From an uncultured Candidatus Nemicrothrix sp. (GTDB lineage: Bacteria > Actinomycetota > Acidimicrobiia > Acidimicrobiales > Aldehydirespiratoraceae), in NCBI GenBank assembly GCA_964504305.1, contig CAZDEB010000001.1, forward strand, positions 233,826 to 297,825: DNA of 64,000 bases, in the 5' to 3' direction. Position numbers and translations under genes: made by a program. A model generated the notes under the pieces. The model ran no database searches and had not been told where the DNA came from. It saw only the letters and a program-made list of their open reading frames with translations. Position 1 is the first letter of the stretch. Each line of letters starts with the position of its first letter. Shown here one piece after another: positions 299 to 26,540 of the stretch.

Positions 299-2179
299 TT
301 GGCAGTCTACGAGGGGCTTGTCGGGCGGGTCGGTACCATTCCGGCGGTGATTACACGGGACGATCTCCGCAACGTGGCGATGATCGCCCATGTTGACCAC
401 GGCAAAACAACACTGGTCGACGCTCTGCTGCGTCAAGCTGGTGCCTTTCGCGAAGGGGCCGAGCTGACCGACCGCGTCATGGATTCCATGGACCTCGAAC
501 GCGAGAAGGGCATCACCATTCTCGCCAAGAACACCGCCATTCGGTACCGCGACTACAAGATCAACATTGTCGATACCCCAGGCCACGCCGACTTCGGGGG
601 AGAGGTCGAACGGGCCCTCACCATGGTCGATGGTGTGATCCTTCTTGTCGACGCGTCGGAGGGCCCGCTGCCTCAAACCCGCTTCGTGCTACGCAAGGCT
701 CTCGAACTCGAACTTCCGGTAATTCTTGTGATCAACAAGATCGACCGGCCCGATGCTCGTATTGCCGCGGTTGTCGACGAGGTATACGAGTTGTTCCTCG
801 ATCTCGACGCCGACGAGTCGGCCATTGATTTCCCGATCGTCTACACAATTGCTCGCGAGGGTATGGCTACTCTCGATCCCGACCTTCCGGGCACCGACCT
901 CACCGCGCTGTTCGACGTGCTACTCGAGGCGGTGCCGGCACCGGTCCACGATCCAGATCACCCCATGCGGGCGTGGGTCACGAACCTCGATGCGTCGCCG
1001 TATGTGGGACGCATCGCTCGTTGTCGCGTTCAGCACGGCACGATTCGCAAGGGTCAGTCGGTTGCTTGGTGCCAGTCAGACGGAACCATCAAGAGTGCCC
1101 GAGTCGGCACTCTCACTGTTACCGAAGCTCTCGACCAAGTCGAGGTCGATTCTGCTGGCCCTGGCGAGTTGATCGGTATCTCAGGAATCGAACAGGTAAC
1201 GATTGGCGACACGCTGGCCGACCCCGAAGATCCGCGACCGTTCCCGGCCATTACGGTCGACGAACCCACACTGTCGATGACGATCGGTGTCAACACGTCG
1301 CCGTTGGCGGGGTCCGAAGGCAAGAAACTCACCGCCCGGCTCATCAAGGCTCGTTTGGATGCCGAGTTGGTAGGCAACGTCTCGATCCGGGTACTGACGA
1401 CCGAACGGCCCGACACGTGGGAAGTTCAGGGGCGAGGCGAGTTGCAATTGGCGATCCTCGTCGAGACCATGCGTCGCGAAAATTTCGAGCTCACCGTTGG
1501 CAAACCGGCAGTGCTCACTCAAGAAATCAACGGAACCCTTCACGAGCCGACCGAACGTCTCACCATCGACGTTCCCGAAGAACATGTGGGTTCGGTTACT
1601 CAACTGCTTGGCGCCCGCAAAGCCAAAATGGAAGACATGTCCAATCACGGCACCGGTTGGGTTCGCCTCGACTACGTGGTTCCCGCACGCGCCCTTATCG
1701 GGTTTCGTACGGAGTTCCTGACCGAGACCAGGGGCACTGGCCTGCTCCATCACATCTTCGAAGGCTGGATGCCGTGGGCGGGCGAGATTCGCACTCGGCT
1801 CAACGGCAGCGTTGTGGCCGACCGCACCGGTGACTCCACTGGCTACGCAATCGCGGCGCTGCAAGAGCGCTCGGCGCTCTATGTCGGACCTGGGGCCAAA
1901 GTTTACGAAGGCATGGTGGTCGGCGAGAACGCCCGCAACGAAGACATGGACGTCAACATCGTTCGCGAAAAGAAGCAGACCAATATTCGCACCCAATCAT
2001 CCGACGACACGATTCGCCTCACGCCCCCCAAGACCTTGTCGTTGGAGCAAGCGCTGGAAACGATCGCCGACGACGAGTGCGTCGAGGTGACACCCTCGTC
2101 GGTTCGGGTTCGTAAGACGATCCTCGACGCCGGCGAACGCGCCCGAGCACTCAAGCGAACTAAGAACCCTCGAGATTGA
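299..2179 (+). CDS. typA: translational GTPase TypA/BipA
   Basis: 626-aa ORF. G1 motif [24 protein letters not shown] and NKID are present, and the EF-G-like domain order is typical of BipA. The true start may be the in-frame GTG at 347 ([21 protein letters not shown]). Confidence 0.95.
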
Positions 2180-3233
2180 CCGGCAGAGATTTTAGCGAGT
2201 TGTTCAAATTGCTGCGCTGCCAGGTTGCTGGGCCGGCCTGAAGCAGTTGCGGCCACCGGCTGAGGGTTTCTTCGAAGAAGACTCGCCCTTCGAGGCGGGC
2301 GAGGTGCACTCCTAGGCAGAAGTGGGTTGCGATCCCGAACGATAGGTGAGGATTCGGGTCTCGCCGGATGTCGAAGCGATTCGGGTCCGCAAACACCTCT
2401 TCGTCGCGGTTCGCCGAGGTGTAAACCATCGCAACCTTGTCGCCCTTTGCGATGTTGGCATCGCCCAGTTTGGTGTTGCGAGTAGCGGTGCGGCGGAAGT
2501 AATGAAGGGGGTTGGCGTACCGCAAGATCTCCTCGACAGCACCCTGTATCAGCCGGTGATCGTTGCGTACGAGTTCGAGTTGATCAGGGTGTTGGAGCAG
2601 GCAGTACATGCCGCTCGACAACATGGTTCTTGTGGTGTCGTTGCCCGCGGTCACCAGTTGAACAAAGAACCTGGCAAAGTCGATGTCGGTCATCTGGTGG
2701 CCATCGAATGTTTCCGACAGCAACAAGTCGGTCAGATCGCCTCGCGGCGGTTGATCGCGGCGGACTGCGGCAAACGCCATCGCGTACATGGCCATTTCGA
2801 CGCTGGCCGATCCGCGTTCGTTGCCGTCGCCGATATCGGGATCCTGGCCTCCGCTGTTGCGTTCGGCCATGGCGTGGATCTTTGGCCAGTCCGACGCCGG
2901 CAGTCCCAAGAGTTCGCCCACTATCTGGCTGGGTAGTCGCGCGCACACATCGTGAACGAACTCGATTTCGGGTCCGATCGTGTCGGCATCGTCGAGAGTT
3001 CGGCGGGTGATCGTGCGTATTCGCGGCTCTAGTCCGGCAATTACTCGAGCCCGGAATCGTGCGGCGACTGGCTTGCGATAGCTGGTGTGTCTCGGTGGGT
3101 CCATTGCCAGCAACATGTCTCGCATGTTTTCCAAAGCGACCGGGTCGAGGTCTTCCAAAACGACCCCTCCTTCGGATGCACTGAACAGGTCAGGGTTCTT
3201 GGCGACCATGACCACATCGCGGTGCCGTAGCAC
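2160..3233 (-). CDS. cytochrome P450, N-terminally short relative to the family (possible pseudogene)
   Basis: Heme-ligand loop FGIATHFCLG, K-helix EEILRY and I-helix AGNDTT are present. The conserved P450 sequence continues in frame upstream of the GTG start (…LARLRLEAPVSWVELEDGSGYWAV) with no ATG/GTG/TTG before the TGA at 3327..3329. Confidence 0.8.
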   Translation of the reverse strand: MLRHRDVVMVAKNPDLFSASEGGVVLEDLDPVALENMRDMLLAMDPPRHTSYRKPVAARFRARVIAGLEPRIRTITRRTLDDADTIGPEIEFVHDVCARLPSQIVGELLGLPASDWPKIHAMAERNSGGQDPDIGDGNERGSASVEMAMYAMAFAAVRRDQPPRGDLTDLLLSETFDGHQMTDIDFARFFVQLVTAGNDTTRTMLSSGMYCLLQHPDQLELVRNDHRLIQGAVEEILRYANPLHYFRRTATRNTKLGDANIAKGDKVAMVYTSANRDEEVFADPNRFDIRRDPNPHLSFGIATHFCLGVHLARLEGRVFFEETLSRWPQLLQAGPATWQRSNLNNSLKSLPVNLEGS

Positions 3234-19484: not shown

Positions 19485-20714
19485 ATGAGTCCCATGCGTC
19501 GCACATCTGTTCTTTGGTTTCTTGTCGTCCTGGCCTCGTTGGGTCTGATCGCCGCCGCTTGTGGGTCCTCAGACACGACGGCCGAGTCGGTTGCGGCGAC
19601 CACCACTACGACCACCACGCCCCCGACCACTGCGCCTACGACTAGCGAGCCCCCGCCGACGACGACAGCAGTTCCGACCACCAGCGCGGCGCCGTTCAAT
19701 ACACGGTTTGATGGCTTTGGTTCGTACTCAGTGGGTCGTCAGGTGGTCGAGGTCGTCGACTCCGCTCGCGATGGCCGGACCCTGCCGGTGCAGGTCTGGT
19801 ACCCCGCCGAAGAAAGCGGGGAGCCGTTCACCGAATACGTATTCCTGCCGCCGATGCAATTCTTCTCCGACTTTGCCCTCGACAGCCCAGCGGTGGCGGC
19901 ATCGCCGACCGAAGCTGGGTTCCCGACAGTATTTTACTCTCACGGCAACAACGGGTGGGGTTGGGTGCATTCGACGTTGATGGAGCGCCTCGCCAGCCAC
20001 GGGTTTGTGGTGGTGGCGCCCGATCACGTGGGCAACACGTTGGTCGACTCGGTCCTTGGCACCTCAGACGAACAAGAGGTCGTGGCCCAGAACCGCCTCG
20101 ACGATGTGAACTTTGTGCTGGCGGCCCTCGAGACCGATCCCGCGTTCTCGAAGTTTGCCGATAGCGCCGACGAGACCCGCATCGGATTTGTGAGCCATTC
20201 GCTGGGAGGTTGGACGGGGCTTACCACCCTCGGTCAACAAGGCGCCGATTCGATAATCGATGCCTATGTCGGCCTCGCTCCCTTCGTCGAAGTGATCGAC
20301 GACGAGACGTTCGCCGCGATCGAGCGTCCAGTTCTGATGATTTCTGGCAGTGTCGACGAAACCACGCCGGCTGTCGAAGTCAAACGGCCCTTCGACATCA
20401 TTTCTTCTCGGCCGCTCATCTGGGCTGATGTAATCGGCGGCGGTCATCAGAGCTTCGCTGATGCCTGCTTCATCAGGGATCAACTAGGTCTGATCGCCGG
20501 CGTTCCCGACCTGTTCCTCGAGTTGGCTGATGGTTATGCCGAGTCGGGATGCGGCGAGGGGATCGTGGCCGTCGATGTGGCCCAACCAGCAATGAATCAC
20601 CTCGCAACGGCATTCTTGGTCAGCAACCTTGGGGGCGACGTCGGCAACGCCCTCGACCCGGCCTATATCGAAACCGAGTTCCCAGGCGTGTTCACGATCC
20701 AGGTTGGCGACTGA
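19485..20714 (+). CDS. lipoprotein alpha/beta hydrolase (PAF-acetylhydrolase/dienelactone-hydrolase-like)
   Basis: Lipobox LIAAAC, a PT-rich linker, the nucleophile elbow VSHSLGGW and the block FYSHGNNG…GFVVVAPDH are present. Confidence 0.75.
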   Translation: MSPMRRTSVLWFLVVLASLGLIAAACGSSDTTAESVAATTTTTTTPPTTAPTTSEPPPTTTAVPTTSAAPFNTRFDGFGSYSVGRQVVEVVDSARDGRTLPVQVWYPAEESGEPFTEYVFLPPMQFFSDFALDSPAVAASPTEAGFPTVFYSHGNNGWGWVHSTLMERLASHGFVVVAPDHVGNTLVDSVLGTSDEQEVVAQNRLDDVNFVLAALETDPAFSKFADSADETRIGFVSHSLGGWTGLTTLGQQGADSIIDAYVGLAPFVEVIDDETFAAIERPVLMISGSVDETTPAVEVKRPFDIISSRPLIWADVIGGGHQSFADACFIRDQLGLIAGVPDLFLELADGYAESGCGEGIVAVDVAQPAMNHLATAFLVSNLGGDVGNALDPAYIETEFPGVFTIQVGD

Positions 20715-20723
20715 AGCAGGCGT

Positions 20724-22310
20724 CTAGCTTCTTGCCGCTCTGTTGCGGAGTTCGTACTTGAGGACTTTGCCACTGGCGTTGAGCGGCAAAGCGTCGACGA
20801 ACTCCACGAAGCGGGGAGCCTTGTAGTTGGCCATTTCGGCGCGGCACCACGTGACCAAGGCGCCGGGTGAAGCGGCGGTGATCGCGGCATCGGGAGTCGG
20901 CACCACGAAGGCATAACCAACTTCGCCGAGACGACTATCGGGCACGCCCACGACCGCGACCTGACCCACATCGGGGTGGTTCATCATCAAGTTCTCGATC
21001 TCGGCCGGGTAGGCGTTGAAACCGCCGTTGATGAACATGTCTTTGACCCGGTCGGTGATATCGATATTGCCATGTCTGTCCATCACTCCTATGTCGCCGG
21101 TGTGAAGCCAGCCGTCGGAGTCGATGGTGTCGGCGGTCTTGGCCGGATCGTCCAAGTAACCCACCATCACGTTGTAGCCGCGGACCACGATCTCGCCCGG
21201 TTCGCCGCGGCGGACCTCGTTGGTCGCATTGTCGGGGTTCTCGGGGTCGATTACCCGAACTTCGACGTCGTCAATCGCTCGCCCCGAAGTGGTAGCGATG
21301 ATTTCGGGGTCGTCGTCGTGACGACACATCGTGGCGATGCCGGTGACCTCGGTGAGGCCATACCCGGTGACCACCTTTTCGAATCCGAGCCTTGATCGCA
21401 TTTGCAGAATCATTTCGACCGGGATCGCCGCCGCCCCGGTGACGGCGAGGCGCAGCGTCGAGAAGTCGAACGATTCGAGATCGGGATGGTTGAGAATCGT
21501 CTGATAGATGGCGGGTGGGCCGGGCAGCATCGAGATGCGTTCTTCAGGGATACGAGCCATCACCGATGCCACGTCGAACACCGGGTGCGGAACGATGGTC
21601 GATCCAGTCAACAGACACGCAACGATCCCGGCGTTGAGTCCAAACGAGTGAAAAAACGGGTTGATGATGAGGTAGCGGTCTTGGTCGAGACCAATCACGT
21701 CGGACCACGACCGAAAGGCGCGACACGTCGCCGAGTGGGTGAGCATCGCTCCTTTGGGATCGCCGGTGGTCCCCGACGTAAACATGATGTTGCAAAGGTC
21801 TTCGTCGCCAACGCGTGCCGCGGCTTCGTCGAGGGTTTCTTCGAGACATAGCGCCCCTCGGGCGATGAAGTCGGCGAACCCGGTGGCGGTTGATGGCACT
21901 GCCCCGCGCATCACCACGATTTCGTTGAGCGACGGGGGTAGCGCCGCGCCGTCGGTCAGCAGCTCGACGTAGTCGGTGTCGAGGAAATCGGTGACGGTGA
22001 AGAGGATGCTGGCCTTGCTGGCTTCGAGCACGAACCGGGCTTCGCGCCCCTTGAAGCGGGTGTTGATCGGTACAACAATTCCGCCCACGGTGTGCACTGC
22101 CAGCGCCGCCACTGCCCATTCCCAGATGTTGGGGGCCCAAAGCGCAACCCGGTCGCCCTTTGTCACTCCCGAAGCAATGAGCGCTTTGGCGGCCGAGCGG
22201 ATCTGTTCTCGGAATTGGGTGAAAGTCCAACGGACTTCGCCATCGACGATGGCTTCGTTGGGTCCGAACTTCTCTGCCGCCGAATCGATTACCTGACCGA
22301 TTGTGGTCAC
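20724..22310 (-). CDS. AMP-dependent acyl-CoA synthetase/ligase
   Basis: AMP-binding motif FTSGTTGDPKGAMLTH, GYGLTE and TGDIGVMD are present. Size is 528 aa. Confidence 0.9.
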   Translation of the reverse strand: MTTIGQVIDSAAEKFGPNEAIVDGEVRWTFTQFREQIRSAAKALIASGVTKGDRVALWAPNIWEWAVAALAVHTVGGIVVPINTRFKGREARFVLEASKASILFTVTDFLDTDYVELLTDGAALPPSLNEIVVMRGAVPSTATGFADFIARGALCLEETLDEAAARVGDEDLCNIMFTSGTTGDPKGAMLTHSATCRAFRSWSDVIGLDQDRYLIINPFFHSFGLNAGIVACLLTGSTIVPHPVFDVASVMARIPEERISMLPGPPAIYQTILNHPDLESFDFSTLRLAVTGAAAIPVEMILQMRSRLGFEKVVTGYGLTEVTGIATMCRHDDDPEIIATTSGRAIDDVEVRVIDPENPDNATNEVRRGEPGEIVVRGYNVMVGYLDDPAKTADTIDSDGWLHTGDIGVMDRHGNIDITDRVKDMFINGGFNAYPAEIENLMMNHPDVGQVAVVGVPDSRLGEVGYAFVVPTPDAAITAASPGALVTWCRAEMANYKAPRFVEFVDALPLNASGKVLKYELRNRAARS

Positions 22311-22747
22311 GTTGTGGCGCTATCCAGATCGAGTCCTTCGGACCACATGAACTCTTCGACCAGTTCGCGACTCTTCCAGCCGTCATCGGTGCGCACCAGC
22401 TGATGGTTGTAGAAACCGCCCGTAGAGAAGAACGGACCGCCGTCGGCGAACTTCATGGGGTTGTAGAACATGGCTCGGACCGACGCCGAGTCGCCGTTGA
22501 TTGTGACGTCAAGGTTGGAGATGAGATGTTGCGTCATCTCGAACATGGCCAGCGACGCCTCGAGCCAGGCCGCCACCGTTTCGGCGTCTCCGGATGCACC
22601 CCCTACCGAGCTGTAGTCGATGGTCGCGTCGGCGGTGAACAACGACTTCCAAAGGTCCCAGTCCTGGGTGTCGACGGCGTGGGCATACCGGGTTAGAAGG
22701 TCGGCGATTTCGATTCGGTCGCTGATGGTCTGAAGATCGAGCGTCAT
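22307..22747 (-). CDS. SnoaL-like / NTF2-fold protein
   Basis: ISDRIEIADLLTRYAHAVDTQDWDLWKSLFTADATIDYS is typical of SnoaL_4 domains. Both ends overlap neighbouring genes by 4 nt. Confidence 0.7.
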   Translation of the reverse strand: MTLDLQTISDRIEIADLLTRYAHAVDTQDWDLWKSLFTADATIDYSSVGGASGDAETVAAWLEASLAMFEMTQHLISNLDVTINGDSASVRAMFYNPMKFADGGPFFSTGGFYNHQLVRTDDGWKSRELVEEFMWSEGLDLDSATT

Positions 22748-23724
22748 TTGGCGATCGGAGCCTTTCGAAGATGGAACGGAATGGTCACGCCGATTTCGGC
22801 GGCCAGGTCGTCGTGTTGAGAGTCGACCGGTGCGCCGATGGAGTCGAGCAGGCGGTTCATCATGCAGAAGTTGGCGGCGATCATCGCGACCCGGTCGGCT
22901 CCGTCGCGGCCCAACGCCAGTTCGACTCGTACGCGAGCATCGGGATACTCGGCGAGGTCACCGAGAACGATCGCGTCGACAAAGGCCAGAATCTCGCGAG
23001 CGAACGGCACTCCGCAATCGTCGATGATCACACCGGTTCCGATCGGAACGCAGTCGACCGTTCCGTCGGCTTTCTTGACACTCGCACGGAGCATCGAAGC
23101 GTGGCCGAGTAGTCAATAGAAGCAGTCGTTGAGCTTTGATGTTCTGGCGGCAACGAGCTCCATTTGCGGCCGAGTGATGCCGTCTCTCACGATGGCCAAG
23201 TCGCCCATTTCTTCGAGGCTGAGGTACAGCACCCCGTGGGCATCGAACATAACTTCGGTCGCGCCTGGCACCGCGGTGAGCGCGTTGGGCGGAAACGCTC
23301 TGCCGCGTGTAGGAACCCAGCCGTCGCTGAGCGACACACCGTCGGGGATTTCGTGGCTTGGCCCGCCCAGCCGGGGGCGGGGAAGCGGCGGGCGGTCGAG
23401 GCCGAGGCCGAATGCCGCGGCATCGATGGCCGCCAACCGGCTGACAATGCCGACCAGTTCGACATAGGCGTGGACGTCGAGGCCCAAATCGGCCCAACGT
23501 TCGATGTCGACTGAGCGAATGGTGTGGGCTTCGGTGGCCACCCTTCGAGTCGCCTCTCGCGCCGCGGCCGGCAACGTGGCGGTCGAGGGCAGATCGTCGC
23601 CCGCCATGCGTGCTTCGGCGGCTATGGCCACGGAGTCCTCGCCGCTCCACCACGCCCCGGGGCTCGCGAGGTCGTCCCACTGTCGCGCAACGAGGGCATC
23701 GAAATCCGCAATCAGGTTTGTCAC
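22744..23724 (-). CDS. AhpD/carboxymuconolactone-decarboxylase-family redox protein with in-frame TGA at 23113..23115 (selenocysteine candidate or pseudogene)
   Basis: Track ORFs 23113..23835 and 22744..23094 share one frame and are separated only by a TGA. The joined translation is …ARTSKLNDCFY[TGA]LLGHASMLRAS…, i.e. C-x-x-[TGA]-x-x-x-H. The downstream part continues the CMD fold (…RVAMIAANFCMMNRLLDSIG). The N-terminal start was trimmed to GTG 23724. Confidence 0.6.
23080..23110 (-). promoter_or_regulatory. stem-loop starting 3 nt 3' of the in-frame UGA (candidate bacterial SECIS)
   Basis: The mRNA reads ACUCG-GC-CACG-[CUUCGAUGCUC]-CGUG-CGAGU. That gives 5 bp + a 2-nt bulge + 4 bp with an 11-nt loop. 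Pairing was checked by hand on both strands. Confidence 0.3.
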
Positions 23725-23767
23725 GCCACCATTGTGGCGCGTCGCGGCGCTTAGTCCTAGACGGCGC

Positions 23768-24736
23768 CTAGGCCGTGAGCAACAGCTTTCCGGTTGTGGC
23801 CCGCGATTCGAGTGCGACGTGAGCCTGACCGGCATCGCTCATGGCGTAGGTATGGCCGATTCTCACGTCGAGCTGTCCGGCCGACACCCAGTCGCACAAC
23901 TGGGTCCAGCGGGCGTCTCTGTCGCCAGGACTGGAGATGTAGTCCCAAAGTTTGGGGCGGGTGACGTAGAGCGATTTAGCCATGAGTTGCAGTGGCGAAA
24001 AGGGAGGCACCGGACCTGACGCATTGCCGAAAGTCACCATTGTTCCTCGAGGCCGCAGCACCATGAGCCCGGCATCGAACGTTGCCGCGCCAACGCCGTC
24101 GTAAACAACGTCGATCGCATCGGTCCCCACGGCGGCCTCGATGCCGGCAACCATTTCGACTTCGTTGTAGTTGATCACGTGATCGGCCCCCGCCGACCTC
24201 GCCAATTCGACCTTGGACGCTGACCCAACCGTGGCCACGACCTCGGCCCCGGCCAGTTTTGCCATCTGTACCATGAGGCGCCCTGTGCCGCCCGCCGCGG
24301 CGTTGATGAGGCACCGGTCGGTGGTACCGAGTCGATAGGTATCGCTAACGAGATAGTGCGCCGTCATACCTTGCAGCGGCAAAGCGGCCGCGATGTCGAG
24401 CGAAACCCCATCGGGAACAGCCATCAGCGAGGAGGCGGGAGCAGCGATTCGAGTGGCGTAACTTCCGGCCACACCCACCCAGGCCACTCGATCGCCCACC
24501 TTCACCGACGCGACGTCAGAACCAACCCCGGCAACGGTTCCCGAACCTTCTGATCCGGGGACAAACGGCAGGGGCATCGGGTAAAGCCCCGAGCGGTGAT
24601 ACGTGTCGATGAAGTTGACGCCCGCGGCGTGAACGTCGATCACGACCTCGCCAGAGCCGGGTTCGTTGACCGTCGTGGGGATCCACTCGAGCACTTCGGG
24701 GCCGCCGGTTGTCGAAACTTGTTGAGCGAAGTTCAT
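23768..24736 (-). CDS. NADPH:quinone oxidoreductase (zeta-crystallin/MDR family)
   Basis: MNFAQQVSTTGGPEVLEW…AGVNFIDTYHRSGLYP…AAAGGTG matches the family. The start was trimmed to ATG 24736. Confidence 0.85.
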   Translation of the reverse strand: MNFAQQVSTTGGPEVLEWIPTTVNEPGSGEVVIDVHAAGVNFIDTYHRSGLYPMPLPFVPGSEGSGTVAGVGSDVASVKVGDRVAWVGVAGSYATRIAAPASSLMAVPDGVSLDIAAALPLQGMTAHYLVSDTYRLGTTDRCLINAAAGGTGRLMVQMAKLAGAEVVATVGSASKVELARSAGADHVINYNEVEMVAGIEAAVGTDAIDVVYDGVGAATFDAGLMVLRPRGTMVTFGNASGPVPPFSPLQLMAKSLYVTRPKLWDYISSPGDRDARWTQLCDWVSAGQLDVRIGHTYAMSDAGQAHVALESRATTGKLLLTA

Positions 24737-24804
24737 CTCACACTTTAGAACTCCCGGGTGAGGGGTGCCTTCCATCGCACCCCCAGAACTGTTAGGCACT
24801 GCCT

Positions 24805-25203
24805 ATGCCGCACATCATTATCGAATACAGCGACAACCTCGATCGTCTGTTGCCCGTTGACGACTTTGTCCAAGCCGTCCACGCCGCCGCCGTTGATGAC
24901 GGCATCGCCCCTGTTGATGGGATTCGCACCCGCGCCATCTTGCATCGGCATTACCAGGTCGCCGACCAAGACCCGGCCAACGCGTTCGTGGCTATCATCG
25001 CCCGGCTCGGTCCTGGTCGCCGCGACGACGAGATCCAACGTTTTCTCAACCGACTGATCGATACCAGCGAAACGGCGGTGGCCGAATTTGCCGATCAGAT
25101 CGCGGTCGCCATCAGCGCCGAGATCCAATTCATCGATGCCAACGTAAGAATCAACCGCAACCATGTTGCGACACGGATGGCGGCCAAAGCCGCCTCCGGT
25201 TGA
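24805..25203 (+). CDS. 5-carboxymethyl-2-hydroxymuconate isomerase-family protein
   Basis: The N-terminal MPHIIIEYSDNL signature of the CHMI family is present. Size is 132 aa. Confidence 0.75.
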   Translation: MPHIIIEYSDNLDRLLPVDDFVQAVHAAAVDDGIAPVDGIRTRAILHRHYQVADQDPANAFVAIIARLGPGRRDDEIQRFLNRLIDTSETAVAEFADQIAVAISAEIQFIDANVRINRNHVATRMAAKAASG

Positions 25204-26540
25204 GCAACGAGCGCGGCGCGTTGCCATCGAGGTTGACGTTGGCAGTGGTGGGTCTGTTGGCATCGTCGTGTGTCACGGTCGCGCCCGAAGCCGCTCCTGT
25301 CGATCCCGCGGAACCGCCCACCACCACCACGGTGGCTGTCCTCGAGGCGCCAATACCGGCCGTTACCGTCGGCGCCGAGGTACTGGCCGATTCGGGTTTT
25401 GCGATCCTCGACGGATCTCGTGTCGGCTTGATCGTCAACCAAACCTCGCTGGTCTACGGCGAGCATCTCATTGACGTCATCGATAGTGCCCCCAACGTTG
25501 AGTTGGTATCGGTGTTTGCGCCCGAACACGGGGTGCGCGGCACCGCCGGGGCTGGTGCTTTGGTCGACGACGAGATCGACTCGGTCACCGGTGTTCCCAT
25601 TTTGAGCTTGTACGGCGATACCCGAAAGCCAACTCCGCAGATGCTCGCCGGGATCGACACCCTTGTCTACGACCTCCAAGATGTCGGCGGCCGGTTCTAC
25701 ACCTACATCTCGACGATGGGGCTGGCGATGCAAGCCGCGGCCGCGGCCGGGATCCGGTTTGTGGTCCTCGATCGACCCGATCCATCAGGTGGGGCGGTGC
25801 CCGCCGGATACGTGCTCGAACCGGCGAAGGTGTCGTTTATCGGCCAGTATCCGATCCCGTCGGCTTACGCCATGACTGCGGGCGAACTGGCCAACGCCAT
25901 CGTGGGCGAGCAATGGCTCGACGGGCTGGCAAATCTGGACCTGTCAGTTGTCGAGATGCGCGGTTGGCTTCGGGGTATGACATGGGAAGAAACCGGGCTC
26001 GACTGGATACCACCCAGCCCGGGACTGCAGTCGTCATCGTCGGCGTTGACCTACCTCGGCACGGTGCTGTTGGAGGCGACGTCGATCAGCTACGGCGGCG
26101 GAATGGACGAAACCTTCGAGCTGGTTGGCGCCCCGTGGGCCGATGACCTAACGATGGCTGCCCGCCTCAACGGCCGCGGCCTGCGCGGGGTCTTGTTCGA
26201 ACCGGTCGTGTTTACGCCGGGACCTTTACCGGGCCGAACCAACAATCCCCGTCTGAGCGGCGTCGAGCTGAGTGGGGTGAGGATTCATGTGACCGAGCCC
26301 GGCCCGTTCGAGCCGGTGGCGGTTGGTGTCCATATCCTCCACGAGTTCATGGCCGCCGCGGCCGAGCTAGAAGTCCAAGGCGAGTTCATCAACCGCCCGC
26401 AGACCATGGGGCTGCTGGCCGGCACCGATGCTTTGGTCGATGCCCTAGATGCGGGGGCTGGTGCTGATGAGATCATCGCTGGTTGGGAAGACGGTCTGCG
26501 GGCGTTCAACACGGTGCGAGCCAATTATCTGCGCTACTGA
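25200..26540 (+). CDS. DUF1343-family lipoprotein (NamZ-like exo-beta-N-acetylmuramidase)
   Basis: Lipobox LLASSC and the blocks GLIVNQTS…FAPEHG…SLYG…DTLVYDLQDVGGRFYTYISTM…VVLDRPDP are typical of DUF1343. Confidence 0.8.
   Translation: MSNERGALPSRLTLAVVGLLASSCVTVAPEAAPVDPAEPPTTTTVAVLEAPIPAVTVGAEVLADSGFAILDGSRVGLIVNQTSLVYGEHLIDVIDSAPNVELVSVFAPEHGVRGTAGAGALVDDEIDSVTGVPILSLYGDTRKPTPQMLAGIDTLVYDLQDVGGRFYTYISTMGLAMQAAAAAGIRFVVLDRPDPSGGAVPAGYVLEPAKVSFIGQYPIPSAYAMTAGELANAIVGEQWLDGLANLDLSVVEMRGWLRGMTWEETGLDWIPPSPGLQSSSSALTYLGTVLLEATSISYGGGMDETFELVGAPWADDLTMAARLNGRGLRGVLFEPVVFTPGPLPGRTNNPRLSGVELSGVRIHVTEPGPFEPVAVGVHILHEFMAAAAELEVQGEFINRPQTMGLLAGTDALVDALDAGAGADEIIAGWEDGLRAFNTVRANYLRY

Follow-up and report, generated by a model that had tools for sequence, protein, structure and literature searches.

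The DNA considered here, referred to as the window, is a stretch of 64,000 nt from contig CAZDEB010000001.1 of an uncultured Candidatus Nemicrothrix sp. Its minus strand carries two open reading frames (ORFs), 23113..23835 and 22744..23094, that lie in one frame and are separated by a sole intervening stop codon, the TGA at 23113..23115. Read through, they form a gene of 981 nt with a product of 326 residues. In translation the TGA stands in the context ...ELVAARTSKLNDCFY[TGA]LLGHASMLRAS..., the local reading frame around it being ...PQMELVAARTSKLNDCFY[TGA]LLGHASMLRAS..., and within the motif NDCFY[TGA]LLGH it takes the second Cys position of C-x-x-C-x-x-x-H. The final stop of the gene shares an ATGA with the start codon of the gene that follows (ATG, 22747..22745). 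Gene callers split the locus into products of 203 and 116 aa. We read it as one intact gene for a selenoprotein of the CFYU family, in which the UGA is a selenocysteine (Sec) codon and not a nonsense mutation, and we put the probability of this reading at about 93%. An earlier reading of the window from its sequence alone (the original prediction) had described the two ORFs and their shared frame, the placement of the TGA on the second motif Cys and the ATGA overlap, and all of these were correct as given.

The TGA itself is secure. Two other assemblies contain the 981-nt gene in identical form with its TGA, one from ENA (L001, 100% over 20.6 kb) and one of a Logan run that was assembled separately (L002, 99.98% over 6 kb). 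Records of exactly the same 203-aa product exist for 7 contigs. Because the identical gene occurs in independent assemblies, the TGA is not an assembly error, and the base call that the original prediction had proposed to confirm is upheld by both the ENA and the Logan data. The features of the gene, including the predicted selenocysteine insertion sequence (SECIS), are collected in Table 1.

Table 1. Coordinates of the predicted selenoprotein gene and of its parts in the window
Feature	Position	Strand	Details
Predicted selenoprotein gene, complete coding sequence	22744..23724	-	GTG start 23724..23722, 203 codons, Sec-UGA, 122 codons, TGA stop 22746..22744
In-frame UGA, predicted to be read as Sec (residue 204)	23113..23115	-	Homologous TGA in 80/80 loci; Cys in six full-length homologues
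Predicted bacterial SECIS core	23077..23095	-	5' arm GAUGCUC 23095..23089, loop CGUGC 23088..23084, 3' arm GAGUGUC 23083..23077
Putative catalytic signature E189-x11-C201-x-Y203-U204-x3-H208	23101..23160	-	Glu 23160..23158, Cys 23124..23122, Tyr 23118..23116, Sec 23115..23113, His 23103..23101
Predicted AhpD/CMD-type catalytic core, aa 176-298, spanning the Sec codon	22831..23199	-	PDB 2prr alignment, Pfam CMD, model of homologue P0002
N-terminal lobe, aa 1-175, family-specific, mostly helical	23200..23724	-	Conserved in 40 homologues (Y87, E89, WVPT motif)

Conservation of the TGA codon and of a downstream hairpin

A word-indexed protein search returned 103 homologues, about 95 of which are some 200-210 aa long, span 62% of the query and have the C-terminus ...C-F-[YF]. 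A scan of GTDB with one genome per species found 197 relatives, and the counts of loci given here rest on the best 80 of these. They span 34-64% protein identity and comprise 78 distinct sequences, not copies of one genome; nearly all of the carriers are metagenome-assembled genomes or complete chromosomes of Acidimicrobiia, including Candidatus Poriferisodalis and Microthrix-labelled bins. In each of the 80 loci a TGA directly follows C-F-[YF], and TAA, TAG, TGC and TGT were found at this position in none. The frame remains open for 113-142 codons past the TGA in 79 of the 80, with an invariant His at +4. Conservation of the encoded protein is similar on both sides, with identities of 50-62% after the TGA and 51-64% before it among the ten nearest relatives, and the C-terminal regions match at E < 1e-3 in 80/80. 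At one locus (L048, TGA at about 10624) the frame is open for 377 codons past the TGA, pointing to loss of the stop codon or to fusion with the gene that follows.

An exhaustive HMMER search with a profile of the N-terminal part, run against 1.84 billion cluster representatives, found 1422 relatives, of which the best 150 were examined. Exactly at the residue preceding the Sec site, 139 of the 150 terminate. Ten read on, six of them with CFYC (P0116, P0145, P0217, P0226, P0230 and P0248; the Cys codon is UGC in all five for which the DNA was read), one with S-R-Y-C and three with Gly or Ser, and the word-indexed search added three more full-length homologues with Arg, Leu or Gly at the site. 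The conservation of the TGA, taken with the CFYC homologues, is the classic pattern of Sec/Cys exchange and excludes a fresh nonsense mutation. The residue that follows Sec varies among 81 homologues (T 35, V 21, L 20, A 3, M 2) and is Leu in the window (CFYUL).

Neither Sec nor Cys is found at the site in P0002 (L085 376-1365), P0006 (L087 435-1514), P0014, P0130, P0209 and P0214, which have Arg (CGG), Leu, Gly or Ser in its place and may be inactivated or neofunctionalised copies; in P0002 the site is shifted to C-L-C-R. Two chromosomes of Candidatus Poriferisodalis each carry two diverged paralogues (L035 and L066 on NZ_CBDCBD010000003.1, L043 and L068 on NZ_OZ242364.1). Each pair consists of one 'LFGH' type and one 'TSAH' type, and since both types have the in-frame TGA and the hairpin described below, the family has undergone duplication with Sec retained. 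A few bins (L009, L020, L034, L044 and L050) are labelled Gammaproteobacteria, Kiloniellaceae, Chthoniobacterales, Deltaproteobacteria or Dehalococcoidia. Their genes group among the Acidimicrobiia homologues, and mis-binning or horizontal transfer could account for the mismatch.

When the 60 nt after each TGA were folded, one hairpin recurred, in which positions 21-27 pair with positions 33-39 (the U of UGA being 1). In the window it consists of 7 bp, including two G-U pairs, closed by a 5-nt xGUxx loop; it begins 17 nt past the UGA, and its loop 24 nt past it. In an alignment of 81 sequences without gaps, pairing holds for 90.5% of cells, as against 29-45% when the partner strand is shifted by 1-3 columns. 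The inner GCUC/GAGC never varies, compensatory changes occur at three pairs, and the observed covariation score was reached by no shuffle.

Codon choice points in the same direction. Leu +8 is encoded by CTC in 81/81 sequences, compared with 39% of the other Leu codons in the same genes, and Ser +11 by AGC or AGT in 81/81, where the background frequency is 28.5%. The residue encoded at +9 varies between R, G and S, yet its codon takes only the forms NGU and NGG, which keeps loop positions 2-3 at G-U or G-G. Because synonymous codons are fixed at +8 and +11 and codon +9 is constrained, the invariance of stem and loop is, judged by these codons, a property of the RNA and not of the protein. Among the Cys homologues (n=5, each with UGC at the site) the hairpin forms no more than 4-6 of its 7 pairs; two of the five encode Leu +8 by CUG or CUA, and in three codon +11 encodes a residue other than Ser.

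Published criteria for a bacterial SECIS comprise a loop of 3-9 nt, an upper stem of 4-16 bp, a G within the first two positions of the loop with G or U after it, a distance from UGA to loop of 16-37 nt, and a minimum free energy (MFE) of -7.5 kcal/mol or lower (PMC13188914). With its 5-nt loop CGUGC, 7 bp and spacing of 24 nt, the window hairpin falls within the structural ranges, and its energy is borderline: -7.4 kcal/mol (z = -2.6) when the core is taken alone and -8.5 kcal/mol once a 3-bp extension (23074..23098) is included. A gathering-threshold scan of the 64-kb window with Rfam gave no match, a result of little weight given the small coverage of bacterial SECIS elements in that database.

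The original prediction had placed the SECIS elsewhere, in a stem-loop at 23080..23110 with 5 bp, a 2-nt bulge, 4 bp and an 11-nt loop. That structure can be drawn as described, but it is not the one that has been conserved: the 81 homologues pair just 66.7% of its cells, shuffled sequences are as stable (z = 0.10), and it would bury the conserved loop G-U in a stem. We therefore rejected it as the SECIS. The two hairpins overlap and are mutually exclusive, and the comparative data decide for 23077..23095. This is also the hairpin that covaries in the alignment of orthologues that the original prediction had suggested, the same alignment that places TGA, and neither TGC nor TGT, at the site in 80/80 loci.

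Family, fold and predicted active site

With Sec replaced by Cys in the query, the read-through protein scored 230.4 bits against NCBIfam NF041238 (cutoff 175, E = 3.6e-68), aligning aa 6-311 to positions 3-346 of the 357 in the model. NF041238 is an equivalog model named 'AhpD_rel_CFYUT, alkylhydroperoxidase-related (seleno)protein', and the name spells out the motif found in the window gene. More generic models of the AhpD/carboxymuconolactone decarboxylase (CMD) type cover just some 40 residues around the motif. The AhpD core model TIGR00778 gave 23.4 bits (cutoff 27.8), and the peroxidase-related model TIGR01926 gave 34.5 bits (cutoff 81.8) with a match restricted to aa 179-220. Since the generic models all score below their cutoffs, the protein is placed as a distant relative of AhpD; by these scores homology to the AhpD/CMD superfamily is real but distant, and by its score on NF041238 the gene is a member of a separate, curated, AhpD-related CFYU family. 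The original prediction had spoken of an AhpD-like selenoprotein, and this holds in the sense of an AhpD-related CxxU protein. Assignment to the classical COG2128/TIGR01926 type of AhpD-like selenoprotein was rejected, both on the TIGR01926 score and because the protein, at 326 aa, carries an additional lobe at its N-terminus.

The same superfamily emerged from structure-based comparisons. Sequence matches in the PDB were all AhpD-core/CMD proteins (2prr, 2oyo, 2ijc, 7xw1, PA0269 (2o4d), 3c1l, 2pfx and 6k40). Residues 176-298 align with residues 61-181 of 2prr, with Sec opposite the second Cys of C-L-Y-C. A structure model was made of the full-length homologue P0002, which is 51% identical to the window protein, and not of the window protein itself. 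The model is all-helical (AlphaFold pLDDT 95.3, pTM 0.92), and its best Foldseek matches were 6k40, 2gmy, 2prr, 2oyo, 3c1l, 3lvy and 6e8l, with probabilities of 0.99-1.0 and TMt of 0.53-0.74 at weak E-values of 1.6e-2 or worse. Over its whole length it matched the two-lobed fold of Sestrin2 (TMq 0.48). A weak alignment of aa 49-109 with the C-terminal half of the AhpD-core structure 2oyo suggests that the N-terminal lobe may be a second AhpD-like repeat that has degenerated.

E189 and C201 are invariant in 40 homologues, and H208 is present in 81/81. The proton relay of AhpD has been described as Glu118/Cys130/His132/Cys133/His137 in the Mycobacterium tuberculosis enzyme and as Glu36/Cys48/Tyr50/Cys51/His55 in PA0269 (PMC3141380). 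The corresponding residues of the window protein, E189/C201/Y203/U204/H208, have a spacing identical to that of the AhpD relay.

We propose that the ribosome would read the UGA at 23113..23115 as Sec because of the hairpin that the mRNA would form 17 nt further on (23095..23077). The CGUGC loop of this hairpin would display the G-U that is recognised by bacterial SelB and could thereby recruit SelB and Sec-tRNA(Sec). The true stop of the gene, also a TGA, has no such hairpin and would terminate translation normally. Sec would then stand where the AhpD redox pair has its second Cys, in a helical core of the AhpD/CMD type. In M. tuberculosis AhpD the nucleophile is Cys133. With Sec in the second Cys place of the pair, the product is most likely a selenol/thiol oxidoreductase that would act in peroxide or disulfide reduction through a Cys201-Sec204 selenenylsulfide; Sec204 would be the attacking residue, and Cys201 would resolve it by forming the selenenylsulfide.

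Alternative readings of the UGA and Sec decoding in the lineage

Taken together, the TGA in 80/80 loci, the protein conserved on both sides of it, the Cys homologues, the SECIS-type hairpin and the NF041238 score above cutoff bear out the proposal that the UGA is a Sec codon. Selenium incorporation and enzymatic activity are predicted properties of the product, and decoding of Sec by the source organism would be implied by the gene itself. Several observations weigh against the proposal. No selA, selB, selD or tRNA-Sec gene was found within the 64-kb window or the flanks of the 80 related loci. The Pfam CMD model (PF02627) matched aa 175-214 with 20.4 bits, below its gathering cutoff of 23. 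The hairpin of the window is itself weak, with its two G-U pairs and a core energy at the edge of the -7.5 kcal/mol criterion, and when 48 nt of the window are folded alone, the MFE structure is an extended version of the competing hairpin 23080..23110 (-12.8 kcal/mol, z = -0.7). All 7 pairs are also retained in P0002, a homologue with Arg (CGG) in the place of Sec, where the hairpin is apparently a 'fossil' SECIS that was recently orphaned. Finally, a conserved peptide, M/L-L-x-x-S, could be the source of part of the hairpin's conservation.

The absence of sel genes is uninformative because each fragment of about 20 kb represents <1% of a genome. ARAGORN detected no tRNA-Sec in the window or in 60 related loci, and the window is devoid of any tRNA gene. 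Searches by tblastn with SelA, SelB and SelD of Escherichia coli against the window and about 1.3 Mb of related loci yielded just weak SelB matches to other translational GTPases. The sole such match in the window is to a gene at 299..2179 (+), whose product of 626 aa is a translational GTPase that is TypA/BipA-like by sequence, not SelB. A scan of the window for other genes with an in-frame TGA, filtered for coding-like GC content at third codon positions on both sides, gave off-frame junk, and this negative is weak in that the same filter missed the target gene.

Indirect support for Sec decoding in the lineage comes from the retention of TGA and SECIS across 80 species and from the two TGA-containing paralogues per Poriferisodalis chromosome. 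selA, selB, selC and selD have been reported from all 84 complete genomes of Actinomarina, a member of the class Acidimicrobiia (bioRxiv 10.64898/2026.04.03.716425), and the majority of sponge-symbiont bins have SelA together with SelB (PMC5649159). The expectation in the original prediction that such a selenoprotein would be unusual in this high-GC lineage did not survive: nearly all of the 80 genomic matches are Acidimicrobiia, and Actinobacteria are among the three phyla rich in selenoproteins (PMC1794560).

Four alternatives to a Sec codon were weighed, all of them far less probable. A standard amino acid might be inserted at the UGA, by near-cognate reading as Trp, Cys or Arg, or UGA might be reassigned throughout the lineage. 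Although the lack of Sec machinery in the window would fit, we consider this very unlikely. TGA also serves as the ordinary stop of the gene, and the ORFs of the window fit standard termination at TGA, which argues against reassignment. The hairpin, with its loop G-U and its spacing, is SECIS-like and degrades in the UGC homologues; the position is that of a redox Cys, where Sec and Cys are typically exchanged; curation places the family among the selenoproteins; and Sec machinery is documented in the related marine and sponge Acidimicrobiia cited above.

Even less probable is a true stop that separates two polypeptides, an N-terminal one of 203 aa and a C-terminal one of 116 aa starting at ATG 23094, possibly as a split enzyme. 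An ATG does lie 6 codons past the TGA in the window, and the 116-aa product is what gene callers predict from it. Its position in the family, however, is occupied by Met in 42 of 81 sequences, Leu in 38 (mostly CTG) and Ala in 1, so about half of the family would have no start there. The original prediction found no Shine-Dalgarno sequence ahead of this ATG, and in the present analysis the sequence upstream of it is coding. A stop at the TGA would moreover sever the catalytic helix between Cys201 and His208, and the Cys-containing homologues are single full-length chains.

The original prediction had itself offered a fresh pseudogene, formed by a single TGC-to-TGA nonsense mutation in a Cys-type AhpD-like gene. 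TGC is one step from TGA, homologues with UGC exist, and the annotation as two fragments would be expected of such a gene. This explanation is contradicted by the TGA shared among 80 species-level genomes at 34-64% protein identity, and it can be considered highly improbable: the downstream frame is open and conserved as protein, 139 of the 150 best cluster representatives stop at the same residue, and past the TGA a hairpin is under constraint at synonymous sites. A sequencing or assembly error concealing a TGC, conceivable as a general possibility only, has a negligible chance of being correct, the gene being identical in the window, ENA and Logan assemblies, its 203-aa product occurring on 7 contigs and its relatives sharing the TGA.

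Surroundings of the gene and comparison with known systems

The neighbours of the predicted selenoprotein gene, at 20724..22747 (-) and 23768..24775 (-) of the window, comprise a zinc-type quinone oxidoreductase/alcohol dehydrogenase gene upstream and a SnoaL-like gene downstream. The latter overlaps the selenoprotein gene by ATGA, and after it comes an AMP-binding, acyl-CoA-synthetase-like gene, with stops and starts overlapping. Conserved neighbours that might name a partner were sought, and none was found across the family; the SnoaL-like and AMP-binding genes are not conserved, and the upstream quinone-oxidoreductase-like gene recurs in the five nearest relatives only. No ahpC, lpd or dlaT lies adjacent to the window gene. 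Three further genes, unrelated to the selenoprotein and labelled from precomputed Pfam results on the identical contig, encode a CHMI-family isomerase (24805..25203, +), a NamZ-like (exo-MurNAc) protein (25245..26540, +) and a PETase/chlorophyllase-like alpha/beta hydrolase (19485..20714, +). Elsewhere in the window, an ORF at 2160..3233 (-) has a cytochrome-P450-like haem-binding signature (FGIATHFCLGVHLA) and overlaps the end of the translational GTPase gene.

For annotation, a single selenoprotein of 326 residues, with codon 204 marked as a Sec exception, should replace the two 'hypothetical proteins' of 203 and 116 aa. Most public copies of the gene suffer from the same mis-annotation, as the 139 of 150 best cluster representatives truncated at the Sec site illustrate. 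For biology, the gene implies that this organism of the Acidimicrobiia decodes Sec and spends selenium on a redox protein of the AhpD type. A bolder proposal, which we regard as doubtful, is that the CFYU family is essentially an invention of the Acidimicrobiia and almost wholly Sec-dependent, and that, through its N-terminal lobe, the AhpD-type protein may be two-lobed and sestrin-like and have a substrate or partner different from AhpC. About 93% of the cluster representatives carry UGA, the SECIS core is nearly invariant as GCUC-xGUxx-GAGC, and some genomes have two Sec paralogues. If true, this would be a lineage-specific selenoenzyme in abundant marine and sponge-associated Actinomycetota.

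Families of this kind were recognised early in marine metagenomes. The Sargasso Sea selenoproteome contained 27 AhpD-like sequences, 4 with a CMD domain and 4 of 'hypothetical protein 1', a CxxU family with Cys homologues (PMC1088965, Zhang, Fomenko and Gladyshev 2005), and a 2026 review equates the NF041238 family with this 'hypothetical protein 1' (PMC13188914). Selenoproteins of the AhpD type with CxxU rank among the most abundant selenoprotein families in the sea (PMC2398784). The window gene shares with NF041238 the C-F-Y-U motif, the length class of about 330 aa and CxxU followed by a bacterial SECIS; it has Leu after Sec where the family name has Thr, and otherwise there is no difference in kind. 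With the AhpD-like families 1 and 2 (COG2128/TIGR01926, PF02627) it has in common the helical core, CxxU with Sec second and a marine metagenomic distribution, but those are single-domain proteins of about 180 aa, whereas the window protein has an additional conserved N-terminal lobe of about 175 residues.

Compared with M. tuberculosis AhpD and PA0269 of Pseudomonas aeruginosa, the window protein reproduces the signature Glu-x11-Cys-x-(His/Tyr)-Cys-x3-His in an all-helical fold, and it resembles PA0269 in having Tyr at the third relay position. Both of these enzymes are of the Cys type; the window protein differs from them in having Sec for the second Cys and a different N-terminal lobe.

The SECIS of E. 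coli fdhF offers the closest RNA comparison. Both elements are small apical hairpins within the coding sequence just past the UGA, and both expose G-U in the loop. The apical loop of fdhF reads GGUC, and many members of the CFYU family have GGUCU. The window loop starts 24 nt past the UGA, with no bulged U evident, and the spacing from UGA to loop in fdhF is about two codons shorter. Since it passes the NF041238 model, the window gene is an ordinary member of a selenoprotein family that has been known since 2005 and is already curated, and it represents no new system. To this the analysis adds, modestly, the exact conserved SECIS, its relaxation in the Cys forms, the concentration of the family in Acidimicrobiia and the near-universal mis-annotation of its members as truncated ORFs of about 205 aa.

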